Positions 1 to 49,100 of a stretch of DNA of 64,000 nucleotides are shown here, in pieces. The notes below the pieces were generated by a model. That model had not been told where the DNA came from, made no database searches, and worked only from the letters and a program-made list of their open reading frames with translations. The position numbers and the translations under genes were made by a program. This stretch comes from Rhizaria sp. SCN 62-66 (taxonomy: Eukaryota), in contig MEDY01000003.1 in NCBI GenBank assembly GCA_001724265.1, forward strand, positions 1 through 64,000. Reading direction: 5' to 3'. The stretch's first letter is position 1, and each line of letters begins with the position of its first letter.

Positions 1-3000
1 AGCCTCGGTCTCCTCAACGTCGGCAACGAGCAGGGGCGCCGAACGGTCGGCGGTAGCGACCTCAACGAGCTGGGCCTTGTTGAACGCGGCAACCTTCAAA
101 AGAAGCTGGGCGAGGACGACTGACTGGTGAGTCGAGTCATGAACCTCGGTGTGTTTAAGCTGCTCAGCATTGAAGTTCGCAATGGACGCGATGACAGTGG
201 CCTTGTGCGCATCAAGCTCGGCGACAGCCTTCTTCTCGTTGGCAGCCTCCTCATCAAGCGCAAGGGCAAGGTTAGGAACGGACTTATCGTTGGTCTCGGC
301 AGCGTTGAGGGCGCTGGCATCGAACTGGTCGATGGCGACAAGCAGCTTGGCGAGCAACAGGGGCGTGGCAGAGGCGTCGTGGGTATTGGCGTGTTTTTCA
401 GGTTCTCCTTCTGGAAGTGCGCGATGTTGCTGAGCATAGCGTCTGTGGCGTTGATGCCCGACTTATCAGCAACTGCCACGTTCTTCAACGACTCGCGCTT
501 GAACGCGTTGATGAGAGAAAGCAGCTCGGCCTTAGCGGGGTCGGCCTGAATGGACTCAGGCGCAGCCGAAGCCTCGTCGGCCGGCGACACGGCGCCGTCC
601 TCAACCTCGGCCACAAGCAAGGGCGCAGAGCGGTCAGCGGTCGCGACCTCAATGAGGGCGGCCTTGTCGAAGGCAGCGACCTTCATAAGGAGCTGTGCGA
701 GGACAATGTTCTGCTTGCCAGCATCATGAACCTCAGTGTGCTTGAGCTCGCCAGCGTTAAAGTTGGCGATCGAAGCCAGAATAGCGGCCTTGTTGGCGGC
801 GAGCTGGGCAGCGGCAGCCTTCTCATTGGCAGCCTCCTCGTCGAGCGCGAGCGCAACGTTGGGAGCCGACTTGTCGTTGGTCTCCGCGGCGTTAAGAGTG
901 TTCGCGTCGAACTGGTCGATAGCGACAAGGAGTTTGGCGAGAGTAAGGGGCGTCTCGCTGGCGTCATGAGTGCTGGCGTGCTTGAGGTTCTCCTTCTGGA
1001 AGTGCGCGATGTTGCTGAGCATAGCGTCAGTGGCGTTGATGCCCGACTTATCAGCAACTGCCACGTTCTTCAGCGACTCGCGCTTGAACGCGTTGATTAG
1101 GGAGAGCAGCTCGGCCTTAGCGGGGTCAGCCTTGATCGACTCGGGGGCCTCAGCGGCCTCTCGGCGACCAGGAGAGGCGCGGAGCGGTCCGCCGTTGCGA
1201 CCTCAATGAGGGCAGCCTTGTCGAACGCGGCAACCTTGAGAAGAAGCTGAGCCAGGACCACAGACTGCTTGGTAGAGTCATGGACCTCGGTGTGCTTGAG
1301 CTCGCCAACGTTAAAGCTGGTGATGGAATCAAGCAGAGTCTTCTTGTTGTTGTCGAGCTCAGCAGCAGCCGCTCTCTCGTTAGCAGCCTCCTCATCGAGC
1401 ACAAGAGCAACGTTGGGCGCAGAGCGGTCGTTAGTCTCGGTGGCGTTGAGGGCGCTGGCATCGAACTGGTCAATGGCGACAAGGAGCTTGGCCAGAGTGA
1501 CAGGGGCAGTCGAGGCGTCATGGGTGGACGCGTGCTTAAGATTGCTCTTCTGGAAATGAGCAATGTTGCGAAGCATCGCGTCAGTCGCGTTGATGCCGGA
1601 CTTGTCCGCAACCTCAACGTTCTTCAGCGACTCGCGCTTGAACGCGTTGATCAGAGAGAGCAGCTCGGCCTTGGCGGGATCAGCCTGAATGGACTCGGGA
1701 GCAGCAGCGGTCTCGGCAGCAGCAGACTCGGCGTCCTCCTCGACCTCGGCGACCAGGAGCGGGGCCGAGCGGTCCGCAGTGGCGACCTCGATGAGCTTGG
1801 CCTTGTCGAACGAGGCGACCTTGGCGAGCAGCTGCGCGAGCACGACGGACTGCTTCGTCGAGTCATGCACCTCGGTGTGCTTGAGGGACTCGCTGTTGAA
1901 GGAGGAGATCGAGTCGAGCAGCGACTTCTTGTTGTTGTCGTGCTCGGCCACGGCAACTCTCTCGTTTGCGGTCTCCTCGTCGAGCACGAGCGCGACATTG
2001 GGGGCAGACCTGTCGTTGGTCTCGGCCGCCTTGAGCGCGGACGCATCGAACTGGTCGATGGCGACCAGGAGCTTGGCGAGCGTCAAGGGCGTGTCGGTCG
2101 AGTCATGCGTAGCAGCGTGCTTGAGGTTGCTCTTCTGGAAGTGCGCGATGGTCGAGAGCATAGCGTCAGTAGCGTTGACGCCAGACTTATCAGTGACCTC
2201 GACGTTGCGAAGAGTCTCCTTCTTGAACGAGTTGATGAGCGTGAGCAGCTCAGCTTTCTCGGGGTCCTCCTGGATCGACTCAGGGGCCGCGGCGACCTCG
2301 GCGTAGGCTTCCTCGGCCGCAGTCGCGTCGCTGCTCTCTTCGACATCGGCGACGAGCAGAGGCGCGGAGCGGTCAGCGGTGGCAACCTCGATGAGGGCGG
2401 CCTTGTCGAAGGTCGCAACCTTAGCCAGAAGCTGAGCGAGGACGACGCTCTGCTTGGTCGAGTCGTGAACCTCAGTGTGCTTGAGAGACTCACTGTTGAA
2501 CTCGGCAATGGACGCGAGCAGGGCGGCCTTGTTGGTGTCGAGCGACGCGGCGGCCTCGGCCTCCACCGCGGGCTCGGCGTCGAGCGCGAGGGCGAGGTTG
2601 GGGGCCGACTTATCGTTGGTCTCGGTCGCGGCGAGGCCCGTCTTGTCGAACTGATCGATGGCAACGAGCAGCTTCGCCAGCGTGAGGGGCGCGCCGGTCG
2701 AGTCATGCGTAGCAGCGTGCTTGAGGTTCTCCTTCTGGAAGTGCGCAATCTTGGAGAGCATCGCGTCAGTGGCGCTGATGCCCGACTTGTCGTTGACGTC
2801 GACGTTCTTGAGCGACTCGCGCTTGAACGCGTTGATCAGGGACAGGAGCTCAGCCTTAGCGGGGTCGGCCTTGATCGACTCCGGCGCAGCAGCGGCCTCA
2901 GCCTCGGCAGCCTCAGCGGCAGCCTCGGGCGACGCGGCCTCAGCAGCGGCGTCGTCCTCGACCTCGGCGACGAGGAGGGGGGCAGAGCGGTCCGCAGTAG

Positions 3001-3150
3001 CGACCTCGATGAGCTTGGCCTTGTCGAACGCGGCGACCTTGGCGAGCAGCTGGGCCAGCACGACGGACTGCGTGGTCGTGTCGTGCACCTTGGCGTGCTT
3101 CAGGCTGGTCTGGTCAAAGGTCGAGATCGAGCCCAGGAACGGGGCCTTGT
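1..3150 (-). repeat. Coding tandem repeat, unit ~555-610 nt, each encoding five WH2/beta-thymosin-like modules; 5 full units plus a partial one
   Basis: Recurring modules: SIxxFxxxxLKHTEVHD; LLAKVAAFDKAxLIEVATADRSAP; LLSLINAFKRESLKNVxVxDKS; MLSxIAHFQKxNLKHAxTHD; LLVAIDQFDxxxLxAxETNDKSAP. Unit starts near 3140, 2530, 1930, 1345, 790 and 200. Confidence 0.9.
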
Positions 3151-6100
3151 CGGCGGCGGGGGCGCCCTCGACGGCGGCGGCAGTAGGCTCCTCAGCAGCA
3201 GCGGCAGCAGGCTCTTCAGCAGCGGCAGCAGCGGGCTCAGCCTCCTCTGCGGCAGCAACGGGCTCCTCAACAGCAGCAGCAGCCTCAACAGCAGCCTCGA
3301 CAGCAGCGGTAGCGGGCTCTTCCGCCACAACAGAAGCCTCCTCGACGGCGGCGGCCTCCTCGACCTCGAGGCCGAGCTGCTCAGCGGTGGGCACCATGGG
3401 GCGGAAGTAGCCCGACGGCAGCCCCTCGGGGACAATCGACAGCCCATGGGCATCGAAAGCGAGGCCCTTAAGCGCGCCAGAGGTCTTGATGAGGTCCACA
3501 GAGTCAACGAAGTTCTCGGCCTTCTGGGGCATGACGGCGATGAAGATGCAGTTGCTCTTAACGTCGGCGCCCAGTCCATCGGCGAGGATGCCCGCGATCG
3601 TCGACTCGGGCAGTGAACCCGCCTTGATGGGGGACTTGACACCGGCGGGCGACTTGGCGTACAGAGTCGCCGCCATCATCTTCTCAAATGCCTTCCAGGC
3701 AGCGTTGGCGGCGTTCTGCGCAGACTGCTTCTCGTCCGACTCGGCCGCGAGCGACTGCGAGGTAGGCGTGATGACAAAGCGCAGCTTGCAGCTCACGGGG
3801 CCCGCGGCCAGCGCGGCCAGAGGGCCCGACAGCCAGCGCGGGGAGCCGGGGGCCGAGCCGGGGGAGGCGGGGCGCGTGGCCATGGCGTCGGGGATGGAAC
3901 TGGGGTCGACGCCCTCCTTGGGCGTGCGCGTGAGGTTGAGCTCAAAGACCGTGGTGGACTGGCCCAAGGGGTGGGCGCGGCGCAGCAGCAGGTGCATGGG
4001 CAGGTCGCGGGCGATCTTGGCGGCCTTGGTGGTGAGGCCCTCGATGACGAGCTCATTGGAGCCGTCGGCCTTGGGCACCGTGGGCAGCGGGACACGCGCA
4101 TCAGCGGCCTTGGGGTTGCGCAGCAGGTCGTACACCTTGCCCTCGTGGACCTCGTAGAGCGAGGATGAGATGTCGTACGTGTGCAGCGCGTCCTTCTCGG
4201 CAATGGAGAAGAGGTAGATGGCCGAGATGGGGATCAGGCCGAACTTCTTCACGTCGGCCAGGTTGCCCGCCACAAACGTGTCGCGCACGGGGCCCGGTGC
4301 GCACGCCACGACCACCGTAGTGGTGTTGCCGTTAAGGATCGCCGCCTGGAGCGGGCCCTCGACACCGTCGTAGAAAACGGGGCGGGGCTCGAAGGACCCG
4401 TAGGCGCTGTCGACGGCGACCTCGAGGGGCGCGAAGTCGGCCGCCTCGGGGATGCCCAGCGCGGCCGCCGCAGAGGGCTGCAGACTCAGCGTCGAGGACG
4501 TGGTGGCGAAGAGCTCCGTGGCGTCCTTGTCGAAGCCGCACAAGAAGACGCAGAACGGATCGTTACCGGGCGACGCGCGGGGCTGCGAGGCGCGGAACTC
4601 GCTCTGCGCCGTGATGTAGTCCTTGTGCGTCGACGCGTCGGCAACGGTGACGCGGAACGGGCGCTGGCTCAGCTTCGAGAACATGCCCAGGTACGTGAAG
4701 GTGCGGCTCGACGCCATCGGCGACTCGATCGGAGACGCGGTCGGCGCGGTACCAGCAGCAGCAGCAGCAGCGGCAGCGGGCTCGGCAGCCTTGGACTCCT
4801 CAGCGGACTTGGCGGCCTCCTCGGTGGGGGCAGCGGGCTCGGCAGACTTCTCTTCGGTGGCCTCGGTGGCAGCAGGAGCAGCCTCGGCAGACGCAGCCGC
4901 GGCGGGAGCCTCGCCCTCAGTCGCAGCGGCAGCAGCGGGCTCGGCAGCAGCGGCCTTCTCGGTGCCAGCGGCGGCGGCCTCGGGCTCGGGACTCTTAGCC
5001 TCGGTAGACGCGTCCTCAGCGGGGGCGGCCTCGGTGGCCTCAACAGCCACAGCCTCAGGGTCAGCGACCTCGCCAGCAGCGTTGGCGGCCTCGGGGACAG
5101 CCTCGGCATCGGCCTCGGCCTCAGCGGCGGCGGCAGCGGGCTTGACGGCGCGGCGCACGTTGACCGGGGTCTCGGCAGCAGCCGGAGCGGCGCGGGAGCT
5201 GTCGCGGCCGCGGCGGCCGGCGGCAGCGCCCTCGAACTCAGAGCTGAGCGTGCGCGTGGGCGTCGTGGCGCGCGCCGTCTGCGCGCTCGAGCGCGTGGCG
5301 GACGTGCCGCGGCCGCGGGCCGGCGCGGGGGACTCGCCGCGGCGCATCGAGCTCGTCGGCGTGCCGGCGGCCGCAGCGGATGCGGGCGCGGGTGCGACGT
5401 GGACGGAGCCGTGCGGGGAGGCGAACTTGGCTGAGGTGGGGGGCACGCTGACGACGCCGAAGTTGTCGATGGGGGCCTGTGGGAAGCGGAACGGGCCGTG
5501 CTTCTCGGCGATCGACAGCCGTTCGCGGGCAAAGTGCGACAGCGCCGTGCGCGTGTTGGAAGCCGTAGTGGGCGACGTGAGGCGGTCCAGGAACTCGTTG
5601 CTCACGGGCTTGGCGATGCGCTGCGGCGAGCCCACCTCGGCGGGCGGCAGCACCAGCGGCGCCGAGCGGTCCGTAGCGCCGCGCGAGGACGAGCGCTCGC
5701 GCGTGGGCGTCGTGCCGCGGCTGATGGAGCGGCTCGAGCGCACGGGCGTGGACGAGCGCGACATGCGCGGCGTCTGCGGCTGCGTGTCGACGCCGGCCTT
5801 GCGGCGCGCCTCCTCCCTGGGGTCCACGATCGCGCGCGGGGTGCGCGAGAAGCTCCCGCCCTCGGTCGTGCCGAAGGACGAGAACGTCGTGTTGGCGCCG
5901 GGGGGCATGCGCTACGACGGGAGGCGGCTGGCGCGGGACGTGGCGTGCGAGTACAGGCGGTCGAACACAGACCCGTCGGCGCCGCCACGGCCGCGGCTCG
6001 AGCTGCGGTTGCGCGAGGGCGTGGTGCCGGTGCGCGTGTGGCCGAGCTCCTTGGCGAGCACGTCGAACGTCTTGGGGTTGTGGCGCGAGTCGGTCACAAC

Positions 6101-6604
6101 GGAGGGGTGCCACGGCCGGGGGATCTCCTTGGGGGACGAAGGCAGCTCACGGTCCTTGGACGACGAGCGCTCGCGCATGCGGGCCACACCCTGGCGGTAA
6201 AGCTCCTCGATACGGGGCGACAGAGGCGTGGGCTGCGGAGCCGGCGCACGCTGTGGGTAAAAGTCTTTGTGGACGCCGCTGGTGCTACTGTTGGAAGGGC
6301 TACGACTTCGACTACGACCGCGGCCGACGTTGAGCGACGAGCGCATCGACGGCGGAGGCGGTGTGTAGGCGGCATAGGCCATGTGTGAAGCAGACGCGGT
6401 CGAGGAAACAACCTCGGCGCGGGAAGGGGTCGCGGGGACCGGGAGAGCAGGCGCCATAGCGGCGGCGACTAACTCATCAAATTCGCTTGTGTGGTGGGGC
6501 TGCTCATCAGCAAAAGGAATATTGGGCTCAGGAAGAGTGGCAATCAGCTCATTGTGCGCTGTACCTTCCTGAATGCTCGTAATGTCAGCGTCGTGCGAAG
6601 ACAT
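1..6604 (-). CDS. Giant cytoskeletal protein: Ser/Arg-rich N-terminus, degenerate kinesin-like domain, C-terminal WH2/beta-thymosin (actobindin-like) repeat array; 3' end outside window
   Basis: ATG at 6604 (MSSHDAD). ORFs 5912..6604 and 1097..5908 are in frame, separated only by TAG CGC (TCG TAG CGC ATG). The repeat pattern continues in other frames past apparent indels at ~1160 and ~394-398 and runs off position 1. Confidence 0.8.
3460..4560 (-). other. Degenerate kinesin motor-like domain
   Basis: Kinesin-like blocks in the expected order: FYDGVEGPLQAAILNGNTTTVVV, GLIPISAIYLF, YDISSSLYEVHEGKVYDLL, LVIEGLT, TVFELNL, CKLRFV, ESTIAGILADGLGADVKSNCIFIAVMP (cf. YRDSKLTRLLQDSLGGNSKTxMIAxxSP). 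P-loop and switch motifs are not conserved. Confidence 0.7.
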
Positions 6605-7295
6605 GAGAGCTACGGACGGGAATCAACCGCGGGGAGTGGGGACGAATCGGGCATTGAGACCGGAGCAGCAAAAGGGACAAAGGAGAGTTTCATGAGCGTG
6701 AGCGCGGCAGTTAAGCGGGAGATAGGTCAAGTTGCAAAAAACAAACAGTAAAGTGTGCATTTGCACCGAATAGTCAATTAAAAGGGTCAAAACATGTCTT
6801 TTTAAGGCAAACGATACCGCAAATAATTCCGCTCAGTCTCGGCGGGTTGGTTGCACGCGCCGGTTCGTCCTTGTTTCATATCGTGCAAAGGAAACATGCA
6901 GCGAAGATACAAGTAATACACAGCATAGAAACCAGTGTCAAGAAACGGAATTTTCAATCGGAGCCCCAAACATCCGTTTTTCAGATCGCCTGAACCTTTT
7001 TCCTGCCGGTCCAAAACCCTACGCTCCGCGAAGTTAGGTCGCCTGGCTGACCGGCCGTCACTGGATTGATCGAGCCCGCCACCACGATCGATCCGTCGCG
7101 CGGTATACAAGCCCTGTGGACAATCGAAGCTGCAGTCTGTTTCTCTTCAGTATGATCGTCTGTACAGATTATGTTGCAGTATAGTTCAACTTACGCAGGT
7201 ATATGCTCATTCATAGTCTTATTTTTTATTAGAAAGCGCGTTTACCCCTGCAGCCTGAGCGGTTTTTTGTCAGCTCAAGAGTGAGTGTAAGAGCG

Positions 7296-8414
7296 ATGTC
7301 CCTCTATAGCGGTCTCTCAGATGCGTCTGGGAAGAAGCCCGAGGACAACAAGCATATCGAGCCCGCCCTGCTTAGCATGCGGCCCACTTCTCTGCGTGCT
7401 CCAGCGACTGCGGCTGCTGCTGCTGCGCCTGCTGCCCCCGCAGGCCGCGGACTGCCTCTCGGGACGACAGTCGCCACCGCTGCGCTGCCCCGGCCGGCCG
7501 GTGCGGGTCGTGGCGCTGCCCTAGGCGCTTCCTCCGCCGTTGCCCACACACCGCACAACCCCTTGTCTGCGCTCCGCAGCGTTCCTGCTGTCGCTGCTCA
7601 CACAGCCGTAACGCAGCTTGCAACTGCGACTCCTGCTGCTGCGCCAGTAACAGCAATGGTCGGCGTTCCACTCGCTTCCACTGCTGCTGCATCGACCGCG
7701 ATGGCAGGTTCAGTCGCTGGCCCTGCTGTAGCCGCACCCCCTGTATCCTCTGCTTTTGCCTCTGCCTCGACGTTTACATTGGCGTCCGCGTCCGGGTCTG
7801 CGTCTGCGTCATCGACATCTGCGCCCCAGAGTCGGTTCGCGGTTGCCATCTCATCGTCGTCGGCTGCGCTCGAGATGCCGTGCGACCGCCGGTTTAACGA
7901 TGAGCTTTACGACCCACGGTATCCCAACGACTTCGCCCGAGAGCGCGACCGGCGCCACCACGACCGTGAGCAACGCGAGCTGAGTGGCCGAAGGAGCGAC
8001 CGTGAGCATGACCGTGACCGTGAGCAGCACGACCGCGACCGTGGCCGCGAGCAGCGGGACCGGAGCGACCGTGAGCGCCACCGCGACCAGCGCGACGGCC
8101 AGAGCTGTCGTGGCGGCGATCGGATGAGTGACAACAAGGCGGGCAATGTTAGCGCCTTGAGTGGACTGACGTATGCTGACATGGCGATTGCAAGGATGCA
8201 ACAGCAGTCAGTCGCGACGGCAGCAGAATCCGGTCATGGTACACAACACCCTAGCACTAACGCGCACAGCCACAGCTACGGCCACGGCCATGGTCATGGA
8301 CAGTCACAACCACATGCGCAGTCACGAGCGCAGTCGCAACCCAAGGTTGACAAGGCGACGTTGAGGAATGAGACTGCCGAAGAGGCGTACCAACGCCGCA
8401 TGCGCATGTCATAA
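7296..8414 (+). CDS. SPF45/RBM17 (DRT111) N-terminus-like protein, 372 aa, lacking G-patch and UHM domains
   Basis: Starts MSLYSGL (cf. SPF45 MSLYDDL); DELYDPRYPNDF resembles the SPF45 motif (D/E)EYDPxxPNDY; charged R/D/E tract; ETAEEAYQRRMRMS resembles GEEAWxRRAAMS of plant homologues; ends at TAA. Confidence 0.55.
   Translation: MSLYSGLSDASGKKPEDNKHIEPALLSMRPTSLRAPATAAAAAAPAAPAGRGLPLGTTVATAALPRPAGAGRGAALGASSAVAHTPHNPLSALRSVPAVAAHTAVTQLATATPAAAPVTAMVGVPLASTAAASTAMAGSVAGPAVAAPPVSSAFASASTFTLASASGSASASSTSAPQSRFAVAISSSSAALEMPCDRRFNDELYDPRYPNDFARERDRRHHDREQRELSGRRSDREHDRDREQHDRDRGREQRDRSDRERHRDQRDGQSCRGGDRMSDNKAGNVSALSGLTYADMAIARMQQQSVATAAESGHGTQHPSTNAHSHSYGHGHGHGQSQPHAQSRAQSQPKVDKATLRNETAEEAYQRRMRMS
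7940..8095 (+). repeat. Imperfect GACCGT/GAGC repeats encoding an Arg/Asp/Glu-rich tract
   Basis: Repeated gaccgtgagc/gaccgc units encoding DREHDRDREQHDRDR. Confidence 0.7.
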
Positions 8415-9007
8415 TAGCACTGGTGCATAGCAGCATCAAGGTGAGAATCGTGACAGGATGCTTTTTGCCGTGTTTTCGCGCCCTTTTTGTGCTGTTTTTC
8501 ACATTTTGCAGATATTGTAGAGTAAGATCACATATTTGTGAAAAAATATTTAGCAATGTTTTACAATAGAGATTTTAATATTTATTTTTATTTATACTGT
8601 TGAAATTGACGCATTTTCACTTTTCTAAATTCCACATGGATTTAGCCATGACAAGTCAACAAGTTAAGAGCTTTTCATTTCTTCTCCAATGAAGTGGACT
8701 ACTTTTAGCTAATCACAGAAATTAACAGCGTTTCAAAAAGTTTTCAAACTTAAGTTGTCCAGTATTAGAAATGTGAGGTGCATTTTTAAGAGCATCATTG
8801 ATTTAGATTCAAAAGACTAATGTATACAGGGCAAACGACACCCATCCGTGGCCAGACATCAGCAGTGACACGTTCAAAACCGCACAAAACCGCACATGAG
8901 TCCATACATAGCAGTAACATACACATTTCCATCAATTGTGCTATGCTATAGCAATGTACGTTCAATCTGTGGACTCTTGAGCCTCGCATTCAATCGATTA
9001 TGATTCT

Positions 9008-22327: not shown

Positions 22328-33458
<11,131 letters not shown>

Positions 33459-34913: not shown

Positions 34914-37900
34914 TTAATAATACCCACTTTGTTGCGCGTAGTAGCTCCCGTTTGAGGTTGAGATGACGCTGTGTCCAGATGCCGGCTGGAACTGCTGCTG
35001 TTGCTGCTGTGTCATCATCATCATGTGCTGCTGATGTTGCGCCTGCAACAAAGGGGACGGCAGCTGCGATGGCGAAGGATTCTGAGGCTGAGTGAGCGGA
35101 AACTGAAAGTAAGGACCTGCGAGCGGAGATGAAACAATAGGTGGCGTTGTTGCCATCGTTTGCATCGGCATGTGCATTGGTAACATCTGCAGCTGTGGAG
35201 GCTGAAGCGGAGCAACATGCATCATCGACGGAGTTCCAGGAGGCGCGTACTGCAACATTGGTGTGGTGACACGAGGCGTTGAGTGCCCACTAACAACCCC
35301 ACTTTGCATTCCCATCGGCGAGTTCGGCATGACACCAACACCAAGGCCACTGAACCCACCATACTGTTGTTGTTGTTGTTGCTGAATCTGCTGCATTTGC
35401 TGTTGCTGCTGCTGGATCATCAACATCATCTGCTGCTGTTGCTGCTGCAGCTGTAGTTGCAGCTGTTGTTGTTGCTGCTGCTGTTGGAATTGCTGCTGTT
35501 GCATCTGCTGCTGTTGAACTTGATGCTGTTGCATCGGGTTAATGCTTGTACCCGTGTTGACCGTGGGTGTCGACATGCGCAAGAGCGCATCTTGCTCACT
35601 CTGCAGCCGCCGCGCTTGATCCAACAGTTCTATCATCATGGCGTCCGTGTTGTCAATCTCGCGCTGGATGTCGTCCGGGTGCGTGTTGCCCGCGGCGCTG
35701 AGACCGCCCACACCGAGAGACCCCATCGAGGGGTGGCGCCCCCCTGCGGTGAGGCTCGGCATCAGCGTGTAGCTCGCAGAGTGGGGCGAGTACAGTCCCC
35801 CGACCAGTCCGCTTCCTATCGTACCCGCGACCACGTTCGTGTTGTACAGTCGCGCGCTGTTGTTGTGCGCGAGAGTGGACCCATCGATCTGCGTCGACAG
35901 GGCGCCGTATGGCCCCAGACCAGCATTCGAAGAGACTATGGAGGGAGCACCTGCTGTCGGGGACATAACGACCGGGTATTGATATGGCCGCAAAGCTGAG
36001 TCGGCAAAGCTCACGCTACCGCCGCGACCGCTGCCGCCACCGACGTTGCCATTATGCAGCGTATTGAGAGTCAGACTAAGCGGGTGCTGCTGAGCAGCCT
36101 GTTGTTGCTGCGGCGGCGGGTTCCCAGAAGCCTGTTGTTGCTGCTGCTGAGGCAGAGGTTGTTGCTGTAGGGTCTGATGCTGTTGCGCCTGCTGCTGTTG
36201 CGTCTGTTGCTTCTGCGGTGGTTGCTGCCGCGGCGCTTGCTCTTGCACAGGAGACTGTTTATGAGCATGAAGTGCCTGAGCCAGCGCAGCGGCAAGCGCA
36301 TTATAGTCGATGCCGTCTTGACCCGCGCCTGCCACAGTCACGCGCGCAGTCGTTACCGCTGCCGCTGCCGCCGCCACAGCTTCACTGCCCAGATTAGACG
36401 CATCAGGGTTCGCAACAGCACCAGCGGCACGCTGGCGGCTCGCGTTAAGCGCAGCAGTAAGTGTGGCAACAATTGCGTTCGCTGCTGGAATGCGCTGCGA
36501 AGATACAATACTCTTGACATTCGACGAGCGCGTAGTGCTCTGCACCGTCGGCGCGCGACGCCGCGTCCCCGCCCCAGCAGCAGCGGCGCCCGCGGTCTGG
36601 TTGCGGCTTGCAGGCCCGCCCTGTAGCCGCGTGGGCGGTCGCGTAGGGTTCACGTCCGACTCGGTGGCCGAGGCCGTGACCGGGGGCAGCCCGGCGTCGT
36701 CATCCTGCGGCAGCTGCTGACGCGGAACGCGGGGCTGGATGTACGTCTTGTACTCGCTCCCCACGGTGCCAGAGGCGAGCGCGGACGTCGCTTTGCCAGA
36801 GCCAGGACTGTCCTCCTTAGAGCCCGCATTGCCCGCAGCAGTTGCGGGCGCAGGGTGCGTGGGCGGTAGCTTGCTCACATCTCGCCACTCTGGCACGCTC
36901 GCGGCCGTGGCGCTCACGGGCAGGGCAACGACAGGGCTTGAGACAGTATTCGCCTTCGGTAGTTGTTGTTCTTGCTCTAGCTGCGGTCGAAGTGCGGGGC
37001 CGCTGATGGGGACGGAGAGATCTTCCATCGACGATTGCGGCATACTCGAGGCAGTCGCGTTGGTCGCCGCGCTTGACGGGTGGCCTGAAAGCCCTGCACT
37101 GCCGGGAAGAAGCGCAGCAACAGAGTTTGTCGCTCCCAGTGTTGTGTGTGCGGACGATGCAGGCATGAACCGCGCGTCACTGAACGAGGGGTGCGCCGTT
37201 GTGATGGCGGGAGCAAACGCGTCGAGCCCAGCGCTAGCGATCGCCGCAGTGACCATAAGCGACGAGGTCTTGGCGTCACCACGGCCGGCAGTCAAGCCGG
37301 CATGCGAGTTCGTGGGCATAGTCGCAAGGGAGCCGGGTTGCAGTGGTTGTGACTGCGCGGGCGCCATTGCATTCAACATTGCAACGAGCGAAGCCAATTC
37401 CTGCTGCGATAACGCGGGCGTTTGCTGTTGCTGTAGCTGCGGCCCGTGCTGGATGAGACCACTCGCGGGGACTGCGGGCGGCGCGCGCGCAGCGCCAGTG
37501 CGGTCCGCGGGACTGCGGTTCCCGCTCGGCCCGACGTGATCCGGGCTCGACACCTGGGCGCCGCGCGGCTGCGTGGGCTGCTGCAGCTGGTTTGGCGAAA
37601 TGGATCCGCGCACCGGTGCGTTCGCCCCCCCGGTAGCCGCCACGGCGTTGTCGCGGGAGGAGTTGACAAGCACGCCGCCGACGCTGTGCCGCTGTGCCTG
37701 CGTCGGCGGCTGCGGGGTGAGCGTGAACGGTGCTGAGAACGCGGACGACGCGATGAGCGGAGCAGACTGGCCGTACGTTGCACTGTCACGGTCACCCATG
37801 CCGCCGAGATTGGTAGACGGGGTCGTGGCACTAGGGGCGGGAGGGCCGAGACCGAAGCCGAGACTTGCAAGGCTCTCAGGAGCGATGTCACCCCCGCTCG

Positions 37901-40900
37901 CAGCTACGAGCGCGGCCGCCGCAGCAATTGCGTTGGCGTCGTTCGCCGCCGAGTTCCCACCACCGTTGCTATTGGTAACAATGAGATTGTACACAATCTG
38001 TTGCAACGTCGCGTGTTCTTGTAGCTGCTGAAGAATACGCATCAACTCTTCTTGCTGCTGCTCCGCCACGGGGTCACTGTCGCCGTTGCCGCCTCCGAAG
38101 GTGCCATCAAGCAGCTGGAGTGCATTGAACGGCGCCTGGCCCTGCTGAGCTTGCTGAAGCGGCTGCTGCTGCTGCGGCATCGCATGTGGATTGTTGTATG
38201 CGCCGCCAATGCCAGAGGGAGACCCCACGCCGGAGTCAGCGTCAAACTCGAGCTGAGCGACGCGCGACCTCGGCGACGGCTGCCACGTGAGACCGGAGTA
38301 CGTAAGTTTACCCGTTTCCACATTGGGCGCCACCTTACGCCCGCGAGTGCTAGCAGCAGCGGAAACACCACCATTCTTTCCGTTCGCTGCGTTTGTGTTC
38401 GTGTTGTTTCCATTGGAGCCGGCGCGGAAATAAGCACCAGTAGGCGACGGTTTGGAGCTAAACGGCGACGCTGCGCCTACGTTAGGGCCCGACGCGAACC
38501 CGCCGTTGCTGTTACTCGCCTGAGGCCAGCCAAAAGCGTTGCTGCGCTTGCCAGGGGGGCTGCTGGCCCGTGCAGCGGAGTCGGCCGTCGGGTTGGCGCC
38601 GGCGACGGGGGCCGTGGAGACAGGGCTCGGATTGTTGGCGACTAGCCCAGCGTCGGCGCTGTTAGAGCTGTTGACAAATGCAGCAGCACTCGCGTTTGCG
38701 TTGGCCTTACTGAGATTGTTGTTGCTCGTCTTGAGGTTGCTGATGTTTCCATTTTCGTTCGTCTTGTTGTTGTTGCCACCATTGTTGTTGAGGCTCGTCC
38801 CGGGAGGATTGGTATGGTCGTCCTTGCTAGTTGCATTATTCTGAAGTGGATTGTTATTATCGTTAGCATTGACGTTACCCTTGCTACTGACAGCCGCGTT
38901 GGCGTTTCCAGCGACGTTCGCCACGCTACCCGCAAAAGGAACAGTATTGTTGTTACCACCAGCAATATTGACAGCACTGCTGTTCTTCGCAGGGTTCTTC
39001 ATGCTATCGACCCCATCAGCAACAGCGTTGTCGCCAGTGCCCACCGGGGCCGAGCCATCAGCAGCACGTGTTCCAGCAAGCGGCGGTTGCTTCAGACTCG
39101 ACTGCTGGCCAGCGAAAGCCACAACACCAGTTCCAGTATTACCGCCCATTGCTCCAGGCAAAGACGTTGCAGGCGCTGCGGCGGACGCTGGGCCGTTGCC
39201 ACCCAGCTTCTGCTGCTGCATCTGCTGTTGCTGCTGCTGCAGGATCAGTTGCTGCGAGTGGAACAGCGACGGGGCGAACATGTTGCGCGACCCTGGCTTA
39301 CTTCCGCCGCCACCACCAAGCCTGCTGTTGGCATTCCCGCCAGAGCCGGGGGCGGCGCCGCCAGCGGCAGCTCCGGCCAGGGCAGGGAGGCCGGCGCCCG
39401 CCTTCACGCTGCCAGTGCCGTTGACCGAGGCAGCGTTGACCAATGCGAATTGACTGATGTTCACGAGATACCCCTGCGCTCCGAGAGTGCCATCATTGAC
39501 GACGCGGCCGTAGAGGTCGAAATAAGGATTGCAGCCATCAAAGACGATGAGGCGCGACGCCCACGCAGCTAAGAGTCCGGCAACAGTTCTCGGAGAGACG
39601 CCGTTGATGTAGTACAGTGGAGACTTATGCGACGATGACGGCAAGACAACGCTCTTAGAGTCATTGTTCTTTCTGTGACTCTGGGTACCCTTGTCTTTGT
39701 GACCACGGCTGGTCTTGTTCGCATTGCTATCCACACTCAGGGCCGCGGTACCGCTGTTTCCACTCGTCACTACGTCTGCTGCGAAGGACCGCGCCCCGAC
39801 GAGCGTGCGCTGCACGATGGTCGACACGGCGGACCGCTTGCCGGGGGAGACGAACGTGACCACTGTGCGCGGCAGGAGCTTGAGCTGCGCCGTCTCGGAC
39901 TCGGTCGCCGCGGTCGCGGAGACACCCGCCAGCGCGGTCTGCGCCTTGGCCGCCGCGAGGGGCGTCCACTGTGAGTCGAAACCGTGCTGTCTAAGGCCAT
40001 GCAGCGCGACGTTCTGGCTGTAGCGGCCCGCCGCGAGCGCCATGATGACCGAGGCGGCCTCGGCGGGCGACATGTGGGGCGAGTCGTGCAGCGCAGTGGC
40101 GACGAGGTTCAGAGGAGGGTCCACCAGACGCCAGCCGGTGCGCAGGCAGTGAGCGGGGCTAGTCAAGGCAGCGCCGAACGCGGGCGACGCGAGAGGACGG
40201 CGCTGGCCGGACTGGGTCGTCACACAACACTGTCCGTGCTGCTGCTGCTGCTGTCCAGCTGGGACAGTGAAGTAGTGGTTCACCTGCGCGAAACGGGTCG
40301 GCATCGTGCCCACGCCAGTCGCGTGGGCAATATGCCGAGAAAGGACTGCCATGCTCATGATGCTGCCGAAGTGAGGCGCGCTGAGTGACATAGCTCCAGC
40401 GACACCACTACTAGCAGCTGCAGCCGCTGTCACTGCTTGAAGATGAGCACGGAAGCTGCCGGAGCTGCCACCTAGCCCCAGTGTCGTGACACTTAAGGGC
40501 GGGTTTTGCCCAGACCCCAGACTCTGCTGATTGTGCTGCTGCTGCTGCTGCTGCATGATGTACTGCGCGAGATACTGGTGCTGCTGCTGCTGCTGCAGGA
40601 AGGCCGGGTAGCTGGGAGACTCAAGCACGCCCGTCGCCGACACGGGCAGGATGGGGATGGGACGGCCACCGGGCCACGCGCGCGTGAAGCCGTGGCGCAG
40701 CGCCGCGAAGTACGCGCCCAGGCGCACGCGCGAGAGCGCCACGGGGAGCGTCATCGTGCGGGCACTCAGAGGGGAAACTGCGCGGGGGTTGGAATTAACA
40801 ATGGAAGGATCACCCGCGTCAGGACTGCTATGCACATTGTGGTTGCTCGTGTTTGTGCTGCTCGTCGCCGATTCCGCGTCAACACCAGTGCTGTGGCTGA

Positions 40901-43900
40901 AGATAAGGTTCAGCTGGTCCAGAGACGTTAAGGATGACGCAACGTAGGACTGTAGGCATCGCGCAAAGGGCAGCGGGGCGGGGTAGCTGAATCTATCCGT
41001 CCAGGGCAGCATCTGAGTGGCATTCGCCGCGAGGGCAAACCGGGGCATCTCACGCGCGTTGGCAGCGCCTTGGGCCTTCGGGTGAGCGGGGAACAGCTGG
41101 ATTGCTGGTGACTCGAGCACAGGTGACCCGTCAGGCGAGATTTGTGTTGCATATGCACCGATATAAGAGGGATGGTTACTGCTAGAGCTCACACGGCCGC
41201 TAGCGCCCGGAACACTGTTGTTGTTGCTGTAATTGTTGTTGTTGTTGGCATGCACACCAGCGGCTGTCGCACTCTCACCTGCGCCGGGCGCCGTTATCAC
41301 AGCCGCGCCGCCGCCAGCGCTGCTGCTTGCACTGCCACGGGCGCTTCCAGAGTTCTGACTCGCAAGCCCATACTGCTGGTGCTGTAGGTTGGCAAACCCT
41401 GCGGCCGCTTCCGTGACCAGCGCGTCCACAGGCGTCGCCGTGCGCGTGACCGACAGCCACGCGCGCGCGCTCGTCGCGCCGCAGAGGGCCGGGCAGCCGC
41501 AGGGGCGCGTGGCCGGGCAGCGGGGCAGCGGGGCGTTGGCAGTCAGCGCGCGGGGCAGAGTCGGCTTGATTGGACTCATCTCGATCTCGACGCCTTTGTT
41601 GGGGACGCCCTCCGCGCTTGCTCCGGCTGCCGACAACAGGTTCGCCTTGGGCTGATGCTGCGACAGATAAGCGTGGTTGTCTTTGCTATGATCTATTGCT
41701 CCACAATAACACAGACTATAATTCGAGTTAAGAAAGTCACGGGACTCTTCGCAACACGGCTGCGTATTGAGTCCAGCTGCATGAATGTTCTCAGCAGCTG
41801 CAGTGGCCGTGACTACTGAGAACGGCAGCAGCGGCTCGCTATGATGGCACGGCGTCGCTGCTACAGCAGCCCCGGCACGAGAGCAGAAACCGTCCAGCCC
41901 GGCCAGCTCTGTGCGACACACGCGGCTTAGCTTCCGTAGCATGCGCGCGGTGACGCCTGGGACCTGCATCGCAGCGGGCGTGGTGATGCCCTTGCGCAGC
42001 ATTTCGTCCTCGACAACAGTGCCCCTCGCGTTCGGACCGGAGGCCGCACCGCCGGACGCGCACGCGTCGCTGTCGCCGCAGTGGCACGTGAAGAGCTCCG
42101 CGCTGAACACCATCACGACGTAGTTGCACTTCTTGGCCATCCGCGTCATCGACACGGCGGGGTGCGCGAACGTGTGCACGGGCGACACGCGCGGGCAGCA
42201 CGCAGGCTCGCGCGGCTGCTGGCCGTGCGCGGCCGCGAACTGCCGCGCCACGGGGTCGGCGAGACGCACCGGGACGCCTGCGACCGTCGCCGCGGCGGCG
42301 ACGGCGGCGCACGTGCACGCGCTGTTGGCCGCGCTGCGGAGCGACGCCCCACAGCCGCAGGTGCTGAGGCCCGTCGAGCGCAGCTGCAACGGCGAGTCTG
42401 ACGGCGACAGCATGTCTTGCGGCCGCTGGATCTGCAACTGTAGCTCTGATGCCTGCGGCAGCGACGGCTGGAACACTGCCACGGACACCGGCTGCGCAAC
42501 GTGCGTGTACGCGTCCGGGTCCCGGATCGGCGTCGGAGGCAGGGCGATGAGAATGCTGTGCGTCACCAGCGGCTGGCGCAGAGTGACGCGCCTCTTGAAG
42601 CGCGCCTTCTTCGCAGTTGCAGGCGCAGTCGCAGATACGGAGACAGCAGGGTTGGCGGTCGAGGTCGGGAAGAGCCCTTCGCCGTCTGACTTTGTTTTGT
42701 TCGCGCTCGTGTCAACGTTGGAGACACAACTGTCACCGCTATCGTCTTCATCTTCGTCTTCGTCGAAGACATACTCTTCGTCCTCATCGTTGTCATTATC
42801 ATTATCATCGTCACAGACGTCGTCGCCGTCAGCAGCGTCACTGCTGTTCTTGCTGGCGGTAGTGCCCGCCGTAGCGCCATCGCTGTCCGTGAGGGAGCGG
42901 CGCTGCCCCGCCTTGGCCTCGCCACTGAAGGCGCCCACCATTGCGTTTCTGCTGCCGTGCGTAGTGGCGTCTGGAAAGACCGACGCGGCATCCGCGCTCT
43001 TGAGCGCGTCGCCGCTGTCAGGGCTGTTTCTATTGTTGCTTCTGTTTGCGTTTCCGTTTCTGTTGCTGTTATTGTTATTGTTTGCGTTCTCGTTTTTCAC
43101 CTCGGCCACGTTGCGCTCGATGGTGAGATCCAGCAGGTTCTTCGGGGTCTCGTACATCGCGCGCGCGATCGCAGTCAGCCGCGGCCACAGCGCCGTGTTG
43201 TGCTCGCTCATGACCGGCTCCAGTACGCGTCCCGCCGCGAGGAGCAGCGTGCGCGACGCAGCGGAGTCGCCGACGCTGTGCGCAATGTACTCCCCGTCGA
43301 ACTCGGCGCTCGCACTGGGAGCGTCACCGGCCCCGTCCGCTGCGCCATCGCTGTCGTTGCCCTTCTGGCTGTTGTTAGCGCTACCGGTCGGTGGCTTGGG
43401 GGGCGGCACACGCGGGACAAGGCCGCTCATCGCGATCGAGTCGATAACGCAGTCGTTGCCGACGTCGTAAGTCACCGTGCGCAGCGGAATGCCGTAGCTG
43501 CGGCACTGCACCCGCTGCGGCACGTCCGGCGGCAACCGCTGCGGCAGATGATGTGGGTGCCCGGCGAGCGCTTGCGGGCGCGGACCCGCGGAATCCGACG
43601 CCCGCGCCCGCGCCTGCAGCAGAGTCGCGCGGAGGTCTTCGGCACTGCTCACCGTGGCCGCCGCCACAGTCCCGCCCGTCTGCGTCACCCCGGGCCGCGT
43701 CTGCGCCTGCGTATGTGTCTGTGGTGCCGACTGCGACTGTGACAGCGCGTGGGCGCGGACTTGCTGCGTGAGCGTGGGCAGCGCCCAGTTGTGCGCTAGG
43801 ACGCCCGCGCGCACGGCGGCCGCCACGGAAGCGGAGCCGCGCCAGAAGAGGTAGCGCACCAGCGTGTGGGGCCCCAGCTCTGGCCACGCGCTACCGATCG

Positions 43901-46185: not shown

Positions 46186-49100
46186 ATGAGCTCAGCCGCT
46201 CCCGTCGCGGCGCCCCCTGCCGTGCCATGCATTGGCCTGCGCCCGCTTGCTGTTGTCACATGGCACCCGTCCGTTGGCTACAGTGACGTGTCCCCCGCGG
46301 CCGCTCTCAGTGCTTCCTCGTCCGACTCATCGCGTCCCGCAGGCGCGCCCCAGCCGGGCACCAAGCTCCATACGGCAGCGACGTCCATATCATCGCGCTT
46401 TTACGAGCTCCAAGACAGGCTCCCACGTCATCCGCGCATCTGCGAGTACATTTCAGTTGTGCCCCTGCAGAAAAGTACGTCTAAGTTAGTATCCATCTTT
46501 ATTCCAGTCCACTGGTTATCCATTTCCTCCTGCTGACGTGTCGCTGCCCGGTTCTCCCCCCCTTGCCTCCACTCCCCGCACTCCCAGACCACCTGCTCCT
46601 ATCCTCGGAGCACTACCAGTCGAGCCTCGCCTCCCCCGCGCTGGCGACGCACTTCTCGCGCTCGCTCGACCTCCCCGGCCTCGCCGAGCTCGCGAGCAAC
46701 GTCTCGCAGGCGCTGTCTCACTTACACGCGCACAAGGTCGTCCACGGCAACCTGCACCTCGCCAACGTCATGATCCCGCCCTGGTCGCGCCTCTGCCACC
46801 CCGCGGGCCCCGCGGCGGCGGGTCCGGCGCGCCCGCTGGACGCGAAGCTCGCGGACCACGGGTTGCACTTCCTCAGCGACGCGGGCCGCGGTGTCAACTT
46901 CGTGCTCGGCCACCCGCTGTACCACGCACCCGAGCGCGTCCTGGCGCTCGCCGCCGCGCCCACGGCGCTCGCGAGCGCCGCGGCGGCCGCGGGCGGGGCC
47001 GGCGGCGGCGTCGCGCAGCGCTTCATGGCCAGCGCGGCGCAGGACGTGTGGGCGCTGGGCGTCATCCTGCTGCAGCTGCTGCGCGGCCCCGTGTTCGTCG
47101 CTCCCGACCGCGACAACACAAGCTCCAGCTCCAGTGCAGGTGCGAGTGCGAGCAGTGCGGGCCAGCAGCAGCAGCAGCAGCAGCTTGCGGGCTCGCTGCA
47201 ACAGCTGACCGACGCCGATGTGTCGACCGCGCTCCTTGCCCAGGCCGCCGCCTACGCAGCTTCGGTCGCCTCCTCGAGCTCCGCCTCGAACTCGAGCTCA
47301 TCGCACAGTAACAACCGCGCTGACTCCAGCGTTGCGAGTGCGGGGGACGCGGTGAGTGCGTGCGGCTTCGTGCCCGCGCCGGCCCCCGCCAAGTCCCTGC
47401 TGGAGCTGTCCCTCCGCCCATGCGCCGCCTCCTCCTCTGCCTCTGCCTCTGCCTCGGTATCCGCCTCCAGTGCGTCTGTGGACAGCCTTTGCGCCTCCGA
47501 CAGCAACAGCAGCAGCAGCAGTAGCAAGTCTCTTCTGTCGCTGGCGGCGACGCTGGCCCTCGAGCGCATCGCCAGCTCAGCCACCGCGGGCACCGCTAAC
47601 GGCTCCAAGACCGCCGGCGCTCCGCGCGCTGCCGAGTTGAGCAGCGACGTTGTCTCTGCCTTGCTCGGTGCAGGCTCCCCCTTAGACGGGGTGAGCGCCA
47701 GCGCGGTGAGCCCTTTACACTTGAGCTTCACGTCGTTCCTCGACCCCACGGTTGGCACCGGGGCCTGGCAGGCCGCCTACGCCCCCTTCACTTCCTACCG
47801 CAGCACCGCCGACGGGCCTGCGAGTGCCGACGCCGCCGGTGTGGTGACGCCCTGGTCGCTCTGCGTCGACTTTATCCGCGTCTGCCTCAGCCCGAGCCCA
47901 GCGCTGCGGCCGACCGCGCGGGACCTGCTCTCGCACCCGTTCCTCCGCGCCTTCCCACAGGGCACCTACACAGCAGTCTCCGCAGTCACTGCGGCAACGT
48001 CGTCTGCAACAAGCAGCTCGAGCGCGATCTCTAGCTCGAGTTCGAGTCGTGCGGTGAGGACGGAGTACGTTGGCAGCACGCTGCGCAAGACCGTTGTCTT
48101 CTCAGTCCCCGCCCAGTCCAAGCCCATCGCAAAGCCCCTAGCAGCTGCGCCAGCGACCGCGAGTGGTGAGCAGCAGTGGCAGCTGACCCTGCTGCTGCCA
48201 CAGTCATCCCACAGCCGCTTCGCGCCGCCGCCGCGCTTGGCGCCCATTTCGGCCAAGCCGGCGCCGGTCCCCGTGGCGCAGGCCATCGCCGACGTCGCGC
48301 TGGCCGCCATCGTGCCCGCCAGCGCCGAGGCTACGGCGGCCGCGGGCGGGACAACGCTGCTCGCGTCGGCCGCCACGCTCGGGCTGCCGCCGCCGCCGCC
48401 GCTGCCGCTGCCGCATTCAGTCGCCGCGCTCTCGCCAGATTTTGCCAGCGGCGGGCGGCTGGGCGCGTGGAGCTACTCCGAGCTGTACGAGCTCTGGCTT
48501 AACCACTCGCGCTCACTCTCAACCTCCACCTCCGGCTCCGGCGCCAAACACGCCCGCGGCGGCGGCAGCAGCAGCGGCGGCGGCGGCGGCGGTGGCGCTG
48601 GCGCGGGGCTCAGTGTGGGCGCGACGGGCGGCGCTATGGGCGGCGCGATGTCCCCTGAGCGTCTGGCGTCGGAGCTCGTGCGCGTGTGTGGGCTTCGCGT
48701 CGTGCCCGCTGTTTTCACGCTGCCGCCACTTGTCCCGCTCGGCGTGCGCTCCGCCAAGAAGGAGCTCTTCAGCGACGCATTCGACCATCACCACCACGGC
48801 GGCGCCTCGTCAGGCTCCTCCTCCACTGGCGCTGGCGCCGGCGTTCTGGCCTCAGCGTCGACGATTTCGGCGGCAGCGGCAGCGGCGCGGCGTGGGCAGA
48901 GCTCCGTGGCTTCGGCCGCGCGCGCACTCGCCGCCGCGCAGGCCGCCTCGTCGGCCTCGGCGTCGGACGCCATAACCACGGTTGCCGCGCTTGAGCGCGC
49001 GCTGGCCGCGGCGCAGCGGTCAGTGCTGTCGAGCGAGGCCTTTGTGACGGTGCGGCTCGACGAAATCTGGGCCGTCATCGTGCAGGAGACGCGGCTCTTC

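Follow-up and report, generated by a model that had tools for sequence, protein, structure and literature searches.

The window analyzed here is a stretch of 64,000 nucleotides from Rhizaria sp. SCN 62-66 (GenBank assembly GCA_001724265.1, contig MEDY01000003.1, positions 1 to 64,000 of the forward strand), and it contains no N. At its beginning, on the minus strand, lies an open reading frame (ORF) of 1603 amino acids (aa) at 5908..1097, open from 5908 down to 1160. Its predicted product joins a kinesin-derived domain, called the head below, to a tandem array of modules that resemble WH2 and beta-thymosin motifs. Past 1097 the repeat sequence carries on in two further frames (96..1064 and 1..357) and passes out of the window at base 1. 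Four public runs supplied contigs that were compared with window positions 1 to 7500; X1 is possibly the window's own source sample, and would then not be independent, and X3 comes from a different study. A cluster look-up also yielded P0006, a gene call of 4469 aa made on another assembly (contig of 57,230 bases). The features of the gene are listed from its upstream end.

5915..6604, minus strand: 230-aa ORF upstream of the main ORF and in its frame, Ser/Arg/Pro-rich and similar in make-up to the N-terminus of the main ORF
5912..5914, minus strand: in-frame TAG separating upstream and main ORFs; the ATG at 5908 follows after one codon
5159..5908, minus strand: basic N-terminal region of low complexity, residues 1-250 (A 14%, S 14%, R 12%, P 11%, T 11%)
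4718..5158, minus strand: Ala/Glu/Pro-rich spacer, residues 251-397 (A 44%, E 18%)
3359..4717, minus strand: divergent kinesin-motor-like domain, residues ~398-850 (from Pfam, Protein Data Bank [PDB], whole-library phmmer, atlas, and BLASTP comparisons)
4277..4303, minus strand: P-loop remnant CAPGPVRDT, against kinesin GQTGxGKT (from HMMER and BLAST alignments)
3932..3964, minus strand: switch I remnant GQSTTVFELNL, against kinesin SSRSHxxF (from pairwise alignment to the related protein P0004 and reading by eye)
3755..3772, minus strand: switch II remnant ITPTSQ, against kinesin DLAGSE (placed by eye; unaligned by MAFFT)
3527..3613, minus strand: LPESTIAGILADGLGADVKSNCIFIAVMP, like kinesin 'PYR(D/E)S(K/T)LTxLLxxSLGGNxKT' (from profile alignment to KIF14; the second stretch of the PDB phmmer search, nonsignificant)
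3152..3358, minus strand: Ala/Glu-rich linker, residues 851-919 (from composition)
1..3151, minus strand: 27 modules in tandem, WH2/beta-thymosin-like and of five types (a to e), the array continuing off the window
1145..1175, minus strand: frame break 1, where the window is 12 residues short of P0006 and shifted in frame
388..398, minus strand: frame break 2, two extra letters in a T run (from X1 and X3 contigs and P0006)

The predicted protein begins with a basic disordered N-terminus, which is followed in order by an Ala/Glu spacer, the kinesin-derived domain, a second Ala/Glu spacer, and the tandem modules. Judged from the DNA, head, linker, and array are one gene. The ORF runs unbroken through them, and positions 3001 to 7500, which take in the N-terminus, the head, the linker, and the first two modules, are covered at 0 differences by single contigs from X1 (7362 bases) and X3 (4506 bases). 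P0006 is likewise continuous, and GC content at third codon positions (GC3) is high throughout, at 0.85 in the N-terminus, 0.90 in the head, and 0.83 in the array. The minus strand of window positions 1 to 6604 is GC-rich as a whole (GC 0.58 to 0.77), and the value drops to 0.48 beyond 6500. These results bear out the single-gene fusion in the original prediction, which a model had made from the letters of the window, together with the Ala/Glu-rich linker that it had seen leading into the repeats. The extent that it had given, 1..4560, was too short; the gene reaches at least 5908 and perhaps 6604. Contigs of a polyA metatranscriptome (X6) match the window at 452-822, 1811-2002, 2269-2438, 4412-4698, 5440-5598, 5644-5874, and 6628-6982. 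The stretch also occurs in bioreactor, wastewater, activated-sludge, and fuel-cell metagenomes (12 rows from 7 studies, with at least half of its words in 4 rows).

Both frame breaks are errors of the window assembly, since the X1 and X3 contigs, from two studies, and P0006 are continuous at these places. At the first, the X1 and X3 contigs diverge from the window at 1160, leaving 27 letters unaligned, and P0006, the first 1583 residues of which are identical to the window protein, has 12 extra residues. At the second, two letters at 394 are omitted by X1 (depth 65.2 of 65.2) and by X3 (14.5 of 14.5); deleting them brings the frame back, and P0006 there reads FQKENLKHANTHD. The second frame of the window corresponds to P0006 residues 1596-1849 (254/254 identical) and the third to residues 4176-4305 (130/130, with only 119/130 in the next unit). 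Because these frames match distant stretches of P0006, about 12 super-repeats are skipped in the window array relative to P0006 (window 1-1160 against P0006 1584-4305). Either the window may have collapsed at the array or P0006 may have expanded.

The head, residues ~398 to 850, appears to be a very divergent kinesin-derived domain, an assignment made by sequence comparison. A phmmer search of the PDB sequences with residues 395 to 905 gave six matches at E ≤ 10. The top four were kinesins (cut7 at 0.0022 and 0.0032, KIF3B at 0.05, and KIF3C at 0.07), and the remaining two were decorin-binding protein A, matched on the Ala/Glu linker. A whole-library phmmer search of 1.84 billion representatives returned four matches at E ≤ 0.001, namely, the protein itself, a junk repeat protein (P0003), P0004 (6.6e-5), and P0005 (1.1e-4). 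P0005 is a canonical kinesin fragment with GQTGTGKT, NKQSSR, and DLAGSE, as is P0008, to which the head showed 25% identity over 165 aa by BLASTP; identity to P0004 was 27% over 219 aa. In a language-model atlas, 27 of the 30 clusters nearest to the head belonged to the kinesin family, with scores of 0.91 to 0.92, and the shared features numbered 167, just under the 170 typical of same-family matches. A profile built from the query and P0004 matched 154 PDB chains at E ≤ 1 in two stretches spanning both motor halves; the best E value was 3.8e-24, and the best 60 of the 154 chains were all kinesins or kinesin fusions.

The nucleotide motifs of kinesins are lost from this domain. HMMER pairs 'vvvacapgpvrdtf' of the head with 'ifaygqtgtgktytm' of Schizosaccharomyces pombe cut7, which sets CAPGPVRDT against the P-loop. 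At the switch I position, 'QST' is common to P0004 and the window protein. The switch II remnant comes after 'CKLRFV', which is set against 'GKLHLV' of P0005 (kinesins read 'GKLxLVDLAGSE'); in a three-row alignment (A2), MAFFT misaligned the switch I/II stretch. A regular-expression scan of all 4469 residues of P0006 detected neither a Walker A motif ([AG]x4GK[ST]) nor NxxSSR nor DxxG[ST]E; in P0008, a canonical kinesin, the same scan detected all three. The motif readings in the original prediction were sound: the coordinates of CAPGPVRDT and ITPTSQ were exact, NxxSSR is indeed missing, and ITPTSQ, as placed by eye, stands at the switch II position. Its kinesin scaffold held as far as significant similarity to kinesins in the PDB and whole-library searches goes, but the Pfam Kinesin match remained below the gathering score (see below). 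A head of this make-up presumably cannot hydrolyze ATP, and the kinesin domain appears to have been kept under selection though every catalytic motif is lost. Ahead of LPESTIAGILADGLGADVKSNCIFIAVMP lies a Lys/Ser/Pro loop, AKSPAGVKSPIKAG.

The 27 modules of the window, 26 found by regular expression and the first by eye, are 29 to 30 residues long. Residues F, L, and D are invariant in all 25 of the modules aligned (alignment A1), two copies that span the frame breaks being omitted. The earlier estimate of about 27 modules holds for the window but not for the independent assembly, where P0006 counts 91 modules (18 pentads plus one), ordered as ab(cdeab)x17 cde and closed by a single hybrid module. 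Spacing in P0006, measured from F to F, is 30 residues from a to b (18/18), 29 from c to d (18/18), 30 from d to e (18/18), and 50 from e to a (17/17). The b-to-c spacing alone varies, from 51 to 67 residues, over an acidic Ala/Glu linker. The pentads are set apart by these variable acidic linkers and are invariant in their internal spacing, so that the array divides most naturally into c-d-e-a-b pentads, each fixed in geometry and joined to the next by a flexible linker. With spacing of 29 to 30 residues within its doublets and triplets, the array has the three or more motifs and short linkers by which tandem WH2 proteins are defined. Tandem Repeats Finder reported short Ala/Glu-coding repeats only, the super-repeat of about 590 bases being longer than its 500-base period limit.

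Window copies of the same module type share 69 to 82% DNA identity. The proportion of differing synonymous sites (pS) among them is 0.53 and that of nonsynonymous sites (pN) is 0.14, a ratio of 0.27 (0.17 to 0.40 by type). Half of the synonymous sites differ, yet the ratio is only 0.27, which argues that selection acts on the protein sequence of every copy; by the same comparison, the array copies are old. A recent expansion or a noncoding repeat is excluded by this copy divergence and pN/pS ratio.

The likeness of the modules to actin-monomer binders was clearest in profile searches. A profile of the 25 aligned modules gave five PDB matches at E ≤ 10, of which the first four were thymosin beta-9 (0.0038), a Tbeta4-Cobl chimera (0.038), WIP (0.33), and MIM (0.79); the fifth was unrelated. 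The alignments are in register, with 'LasIaaFdkesLkhvet' lying on LGEINSFDKAKLKKTET of thymosin beta-9 and 'sLkhvethDkSap' on KLKKTTTNDRSAP, so that both the hydrophobic residues and the LKxxET / LKxxxTNDRSAP stretch coincide with those of the actin-monomer binders. The register of LLxxIxxFxxxxLK with LGEINSFDKAKLKKTET holds for types a, c, and d. The WH2/thymosin character proposed in the original prediction was recovered by Pfam on the whole 1603-aa ORF, with WH2 (PF02205) at 77.3 bits (cutoff, 23.1) and Thymosin (PF01290) at 65.1 bits (cutoff, 24.8), both being sums inflated by the repeats. Module by module, at E ≤ 1, Thymosin matched 16 of 25 and WH2 matched 10 of 25. In the one super-repeat examined type by type, the a-type module alone reached the WH2 gathering score (23.3 bits against 23.1; E = 4.9e-5), and the d and e types matched Thymosin singly at E values of 0.012 and 0.047. 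The atlas clusters nearest to the array were all multirepeat beta-thymosins of nematodes and arthropods, at scores of 0.78 to 0.81, which serve as leads only.

On balance, we favor the reading that this is a real, expressed, and selected gene of an uncultured wastewater or bioreactor eukaryote, and that its product is a giant scaffold of the cytoskeleton, at least 4469 aa long in the fullest assembly, with actin-bound modules and a static docking head. Each module would act as a WH2/beta-thymosin-like element, its amphipathic helix LLxxIxxF lying in the cleft of the barbed face of actin and the LK(H/N)xE(V/T) stretch after the helix running along the subunit. One module would bind one actin subunit, and the protein would hold many subunits simultaneously. 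The 29- to 30-residue spacing and its strict conservation suggest that adjacent modules hold adjacent subunits along a filament strand; the WH2 motifs of Spire have a similar spacing. Such spacing would favor templating or stabilizing along the strand over plain sequestration. The ATPase-dead head would dock statically, either on microtubules or on a different partner, and the basic N-terminus could contribute electrostatic binding, to microtubules or otherwise. In the original prediction, the head was a putative microtubule anchor and the array a putative recruiter or nucleator of actin. Should the modules bind actin, one polypeptide could hold tens of subunits at defined spacing, the protein would lend itself to testing how the spacing of WH2 motifs selects among sequestering, nucleating, and side binding, and a new actin-microtubule coupling could be involved.

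Several results weigh against this reading. The score of the head against Pfam Kinesin (PF00225), 18.1 bits (E = 0.0014), falls short of the gathering score (29.3), and the match covers residues 553-635 only. In the PDB phmmer search, its N-terminal half alone was detectable, the C-terminal half being nonsignificant, and the signal of the combined profile comes mostly from P0004, so that it is transitive evidence for the window protein. AlphaFold2 models of residues 399-862 had a mean pLDDT of 33.9 from the single sequence and 33.5 from the three-row alignment. The 'YRESTLT' of KIF14 reads 'LPESTIA' in the window protein, with Pro for Arg; the Arg of this kinesin stretch matters for microtubule binding. 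In the array, single-module matches were weak, and the b- and c-type modules had no Pfam match at E ≤ 1 in the super-repeat examined. Types b (LIEV) and e (LxAxET) are without the basic residues of LKKT, and the net charge of the array is -241. For P0006 the Thymosin sum reached 270 bits, but no single stretch passed by itself, and families that are plainly unrelated crossed or came near their cutoffs (NOD2_WH, 29.8 against 23.1; TelA; Spectrin_6). Because repeats add up weak matches, whole-protein Pfam scores overstate the WH2/thymosin case. Finally, none of the X6 polyA-RNA contigs lies over 2439-4411, which leaves the head-array junction unbridged in RNA, and no ortholog was found in the protein or contig searches, those for the array being limited by word filters.

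The alternative that survives best accepts that the modules bind actin but takes the head off microtubules, as a partner-binding module within an actin system that would make no microtubule-actin link. The precedent is Smy1p, which the cited source describes as independent of microtubules (PMC2141741). The complete loss of the nucleotide motifs, the replaced Arg of the 'YR(D/E)S' stretch, and a divergence so great that only the N-terminal half is detectable would all fit a head of this kind. Against it stands the Lys-rich loop AKSPAGVKSPIKAG, which we read as lying at the position of the microtubule-facing loop 12 of kinesins. KIF26A, moreover, reportedly binds microtubules. We give this alternative substantial weight, short of an even chance.

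A second alternative touches the modules themselves, whose likeness to WH2/thymosin might not extend to actin binding. They would then make up a helical, acidic rod or spacer, or their ligand would be a different one, such as tubulin or another cytoskeletal or surface component. The marginal per-module Pfam scores, with two of the five types matching nothing, the missing LKKT basic residues of types b and e, and the net charge of -241 would fit such a rod. The strictly invariant spacing of the array would also suit a folded repeat, weak repeated matches can sum to spurious Pfam matches, and the atlas scores of 0.78 to 0.81 are leads only. However, the top four PDB matches of the module profile are all actin-monomer binders and in register, one module type reaches the WH2 gathering score by itself, and the nearest atlas clusters are all multirepeat beta-thymosins. 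We regard this alternative as unlikely, although the chance is appreciable.

A bolder form of the favored reading makes the array a filament-length template built of WH2 modules, an independently evolved protist counterpart of nebulin, with its 18 pentads laid along one strand, where they would set or stabilize the length of the filament, and the dead head pinning the filament to a microtubule. At an actin subunit step of about 5.5 nm per module, 91 modules would reach about 0.5 micrometer. If true, a nebulin-like template with a pinning head would give a fixed actin-microtubule composite in an uncultured cell type. We consider this improbable. That the locus is an artifact, two separate genes joined into a chimera, or else a pseudogene is hardly credible: the two frame breaks of the window, the TAG at 5912-5914, and the difference of about 12 super-repeats between assemblies would speak for it, but both breaks are absent from the X1 and X3 contigs of two studies and from P0006, the head-array join lies within single contigs at 0 differences, pN/pS is 0.27 with high GC3 throughout, and the TAG is upstream of a usable ATG.

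The 5' end of the gene allows more than one model. The upstream ORF at 5915..6604 has a GC3 of 0.75, against 0.46 in a noncoding stretch farther upstream, and may be the true N-terminus or a distinct small gene. The TAG at 5912-5914 is present in the X1 and X3 contigs of two studies (3001-7500, 0 differences), and may reflect read-through, a fixed nonsense change with reinitiation, or two abutting genes. For TAG REASSIGNMENT, a sense reading of TAG in this organism, we found no support; long ORFs of the window terminate at TAG, TAA, and TGA alike. Pairs of open segments flanking a stop were found in the window, except at 5914, only on antisense frames of large genes. Within the disordered N-terminal region, ATDRSAPLVLPP (5642-5677, minus strand) resembles the tail of a b-type module (ATADRSAPLLVAE), at a distance from the array.

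The neighboring genes in the window are almost all orphans, separated by AT-rich intergenic gaps (GC 0.34 at 8501-9000). The only neighbor with a Pfam match at E ≤ 0.001 is a 2686-aa ORF at 46563-54623 (plus strand), which combines a RabGAP-TBC domain at residues 1607-1733 (E = 2.4e-22) with a protein-kinase domain close to the N-terminus (E = 8.9e-12), a pairing reminiscent of animal TBCK. Four giant intron-free ORFs on alternating strands had no Pfam match even at E ≤ 0.5: 22529-28501 (plus strand, 1990 aa), 28743-33359 (plus strand, 1538 aa), 34914-45479 (minus strand, 3521 aa), and 54879-63998 (minus strand, at least 3039 aa). Rfam gave no matches in the window. A tRNA-Arg(gcg) called by ARAGORN at 37489-37566 (plus strand), with an odd anticodon position, is probably false, as it lies inside and antisense to the 3521-aa ORF.

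Relatives of either half were scarce. A word-based protein search for the head returned the protein itself only (1 of 8000 candidates), and contig scans for it gave 62 pattern matches in metagenomes and 8 in viral sequences, with none confirmed. For the array, no relative was found among near-length or shorter proteins, where only the 8000 candidates sharing the most words were scored; Ala/Glu-rich words probably crowded that list, which makes this negative weak evidence of absence. Contig scans for the array gave 4 viral and 230 metagenome pattern matches, none of them confirmed, and a scan for further kinesins in viral contigs gave 9, again with none confirmed. Tandem WH2 proteins and nonmotor kinesins are each well known. 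In the protein, contig, and literature searches made, no protein joining a nonmotor kinesin to a WH2 array was found, which agrees with the earlier remark that the architecture was not a recognized one. The literature search found no report of a protein joining WH2 motifs with kinesin, and a term search of a paper on divergent WH2 motifs gave no mention of kinesin (PMC4314737).

The closest relative of the head is P0004, a 483-aa protein from a public run assembly that is also without Walker A, NxxSSR, and DxxGSE. P0004 differs in having no WH2 array and a coiled-coil-like tail, and at the position of 'LPESTIA' in the window protein it still reads 'FRDSTLT'; the two may represent a small family of dead kinesins. 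Among characterized proteins, KIF26A 'lacks motor activity' (PMC10585591), and Smy1p, which is related to kinesins, 'does not require microtubules' and has a functional tie to Myo2p, an actin motor (PMC2141741). KIF26A/B and yeast Smy1p are like the head in that a kinesin-derived domain serves without motility. There was no detectable orthology, as neither KIF26A/B nor Smy1p was among the PDB matches of the head or the best 60 of the 154 chains matched by the combined profile. Unlike them, the window protein is without all three nucleotide motifs and has a WH2 array as its tail.

VopL/F have been presented as tandem-WH2 assembly factors and Spire has been presented as a nucleator (PMC5412564, PMC7183766). 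Spire, Cobl, and Vibrio VopL/VopF are like the window protein in having several WH2-type motifs in series with short linkers. They carry 3 to 4 such motifs, in contrast to the 27 to 91 modules of the window protein, and none of them has a kinesin-like domain. To our knowledge, the pentad super-repeat with fixed spacing has no counterpart among tandem-WH2 factors. Nebulin, a giant protein of animal muscle, has many actin-binding modules of about 35 residues arranged in super-repeats along the filament. The likeness to the array is probably one of design only, the SDxxYK motif of nebulin being unrelated.

The multirepeat beta-thymosins come closer to the array in their repeated thymosin-type modules, and both the best PDB match, thymosin beta-9, and the Pfam Thymosin family point to them. 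Thymosin modules have about 38 residues, and at 29 to 30 residues the modules of the array leave no room for the C-terminal thymosin helix. Other differences are the five diverged module types and the large N-terminal part, kinesin-like domain included, to which the array is fused. Drosophila Ciboulot has 3 thymosin domains, and the Hydra protein thypedin, which has been called 'an extreme with 27', is the largest WH2/thymosin array that we found in the literature (PMC3614969). With 91 modules, P0006 has more than three times as many as thypedin.

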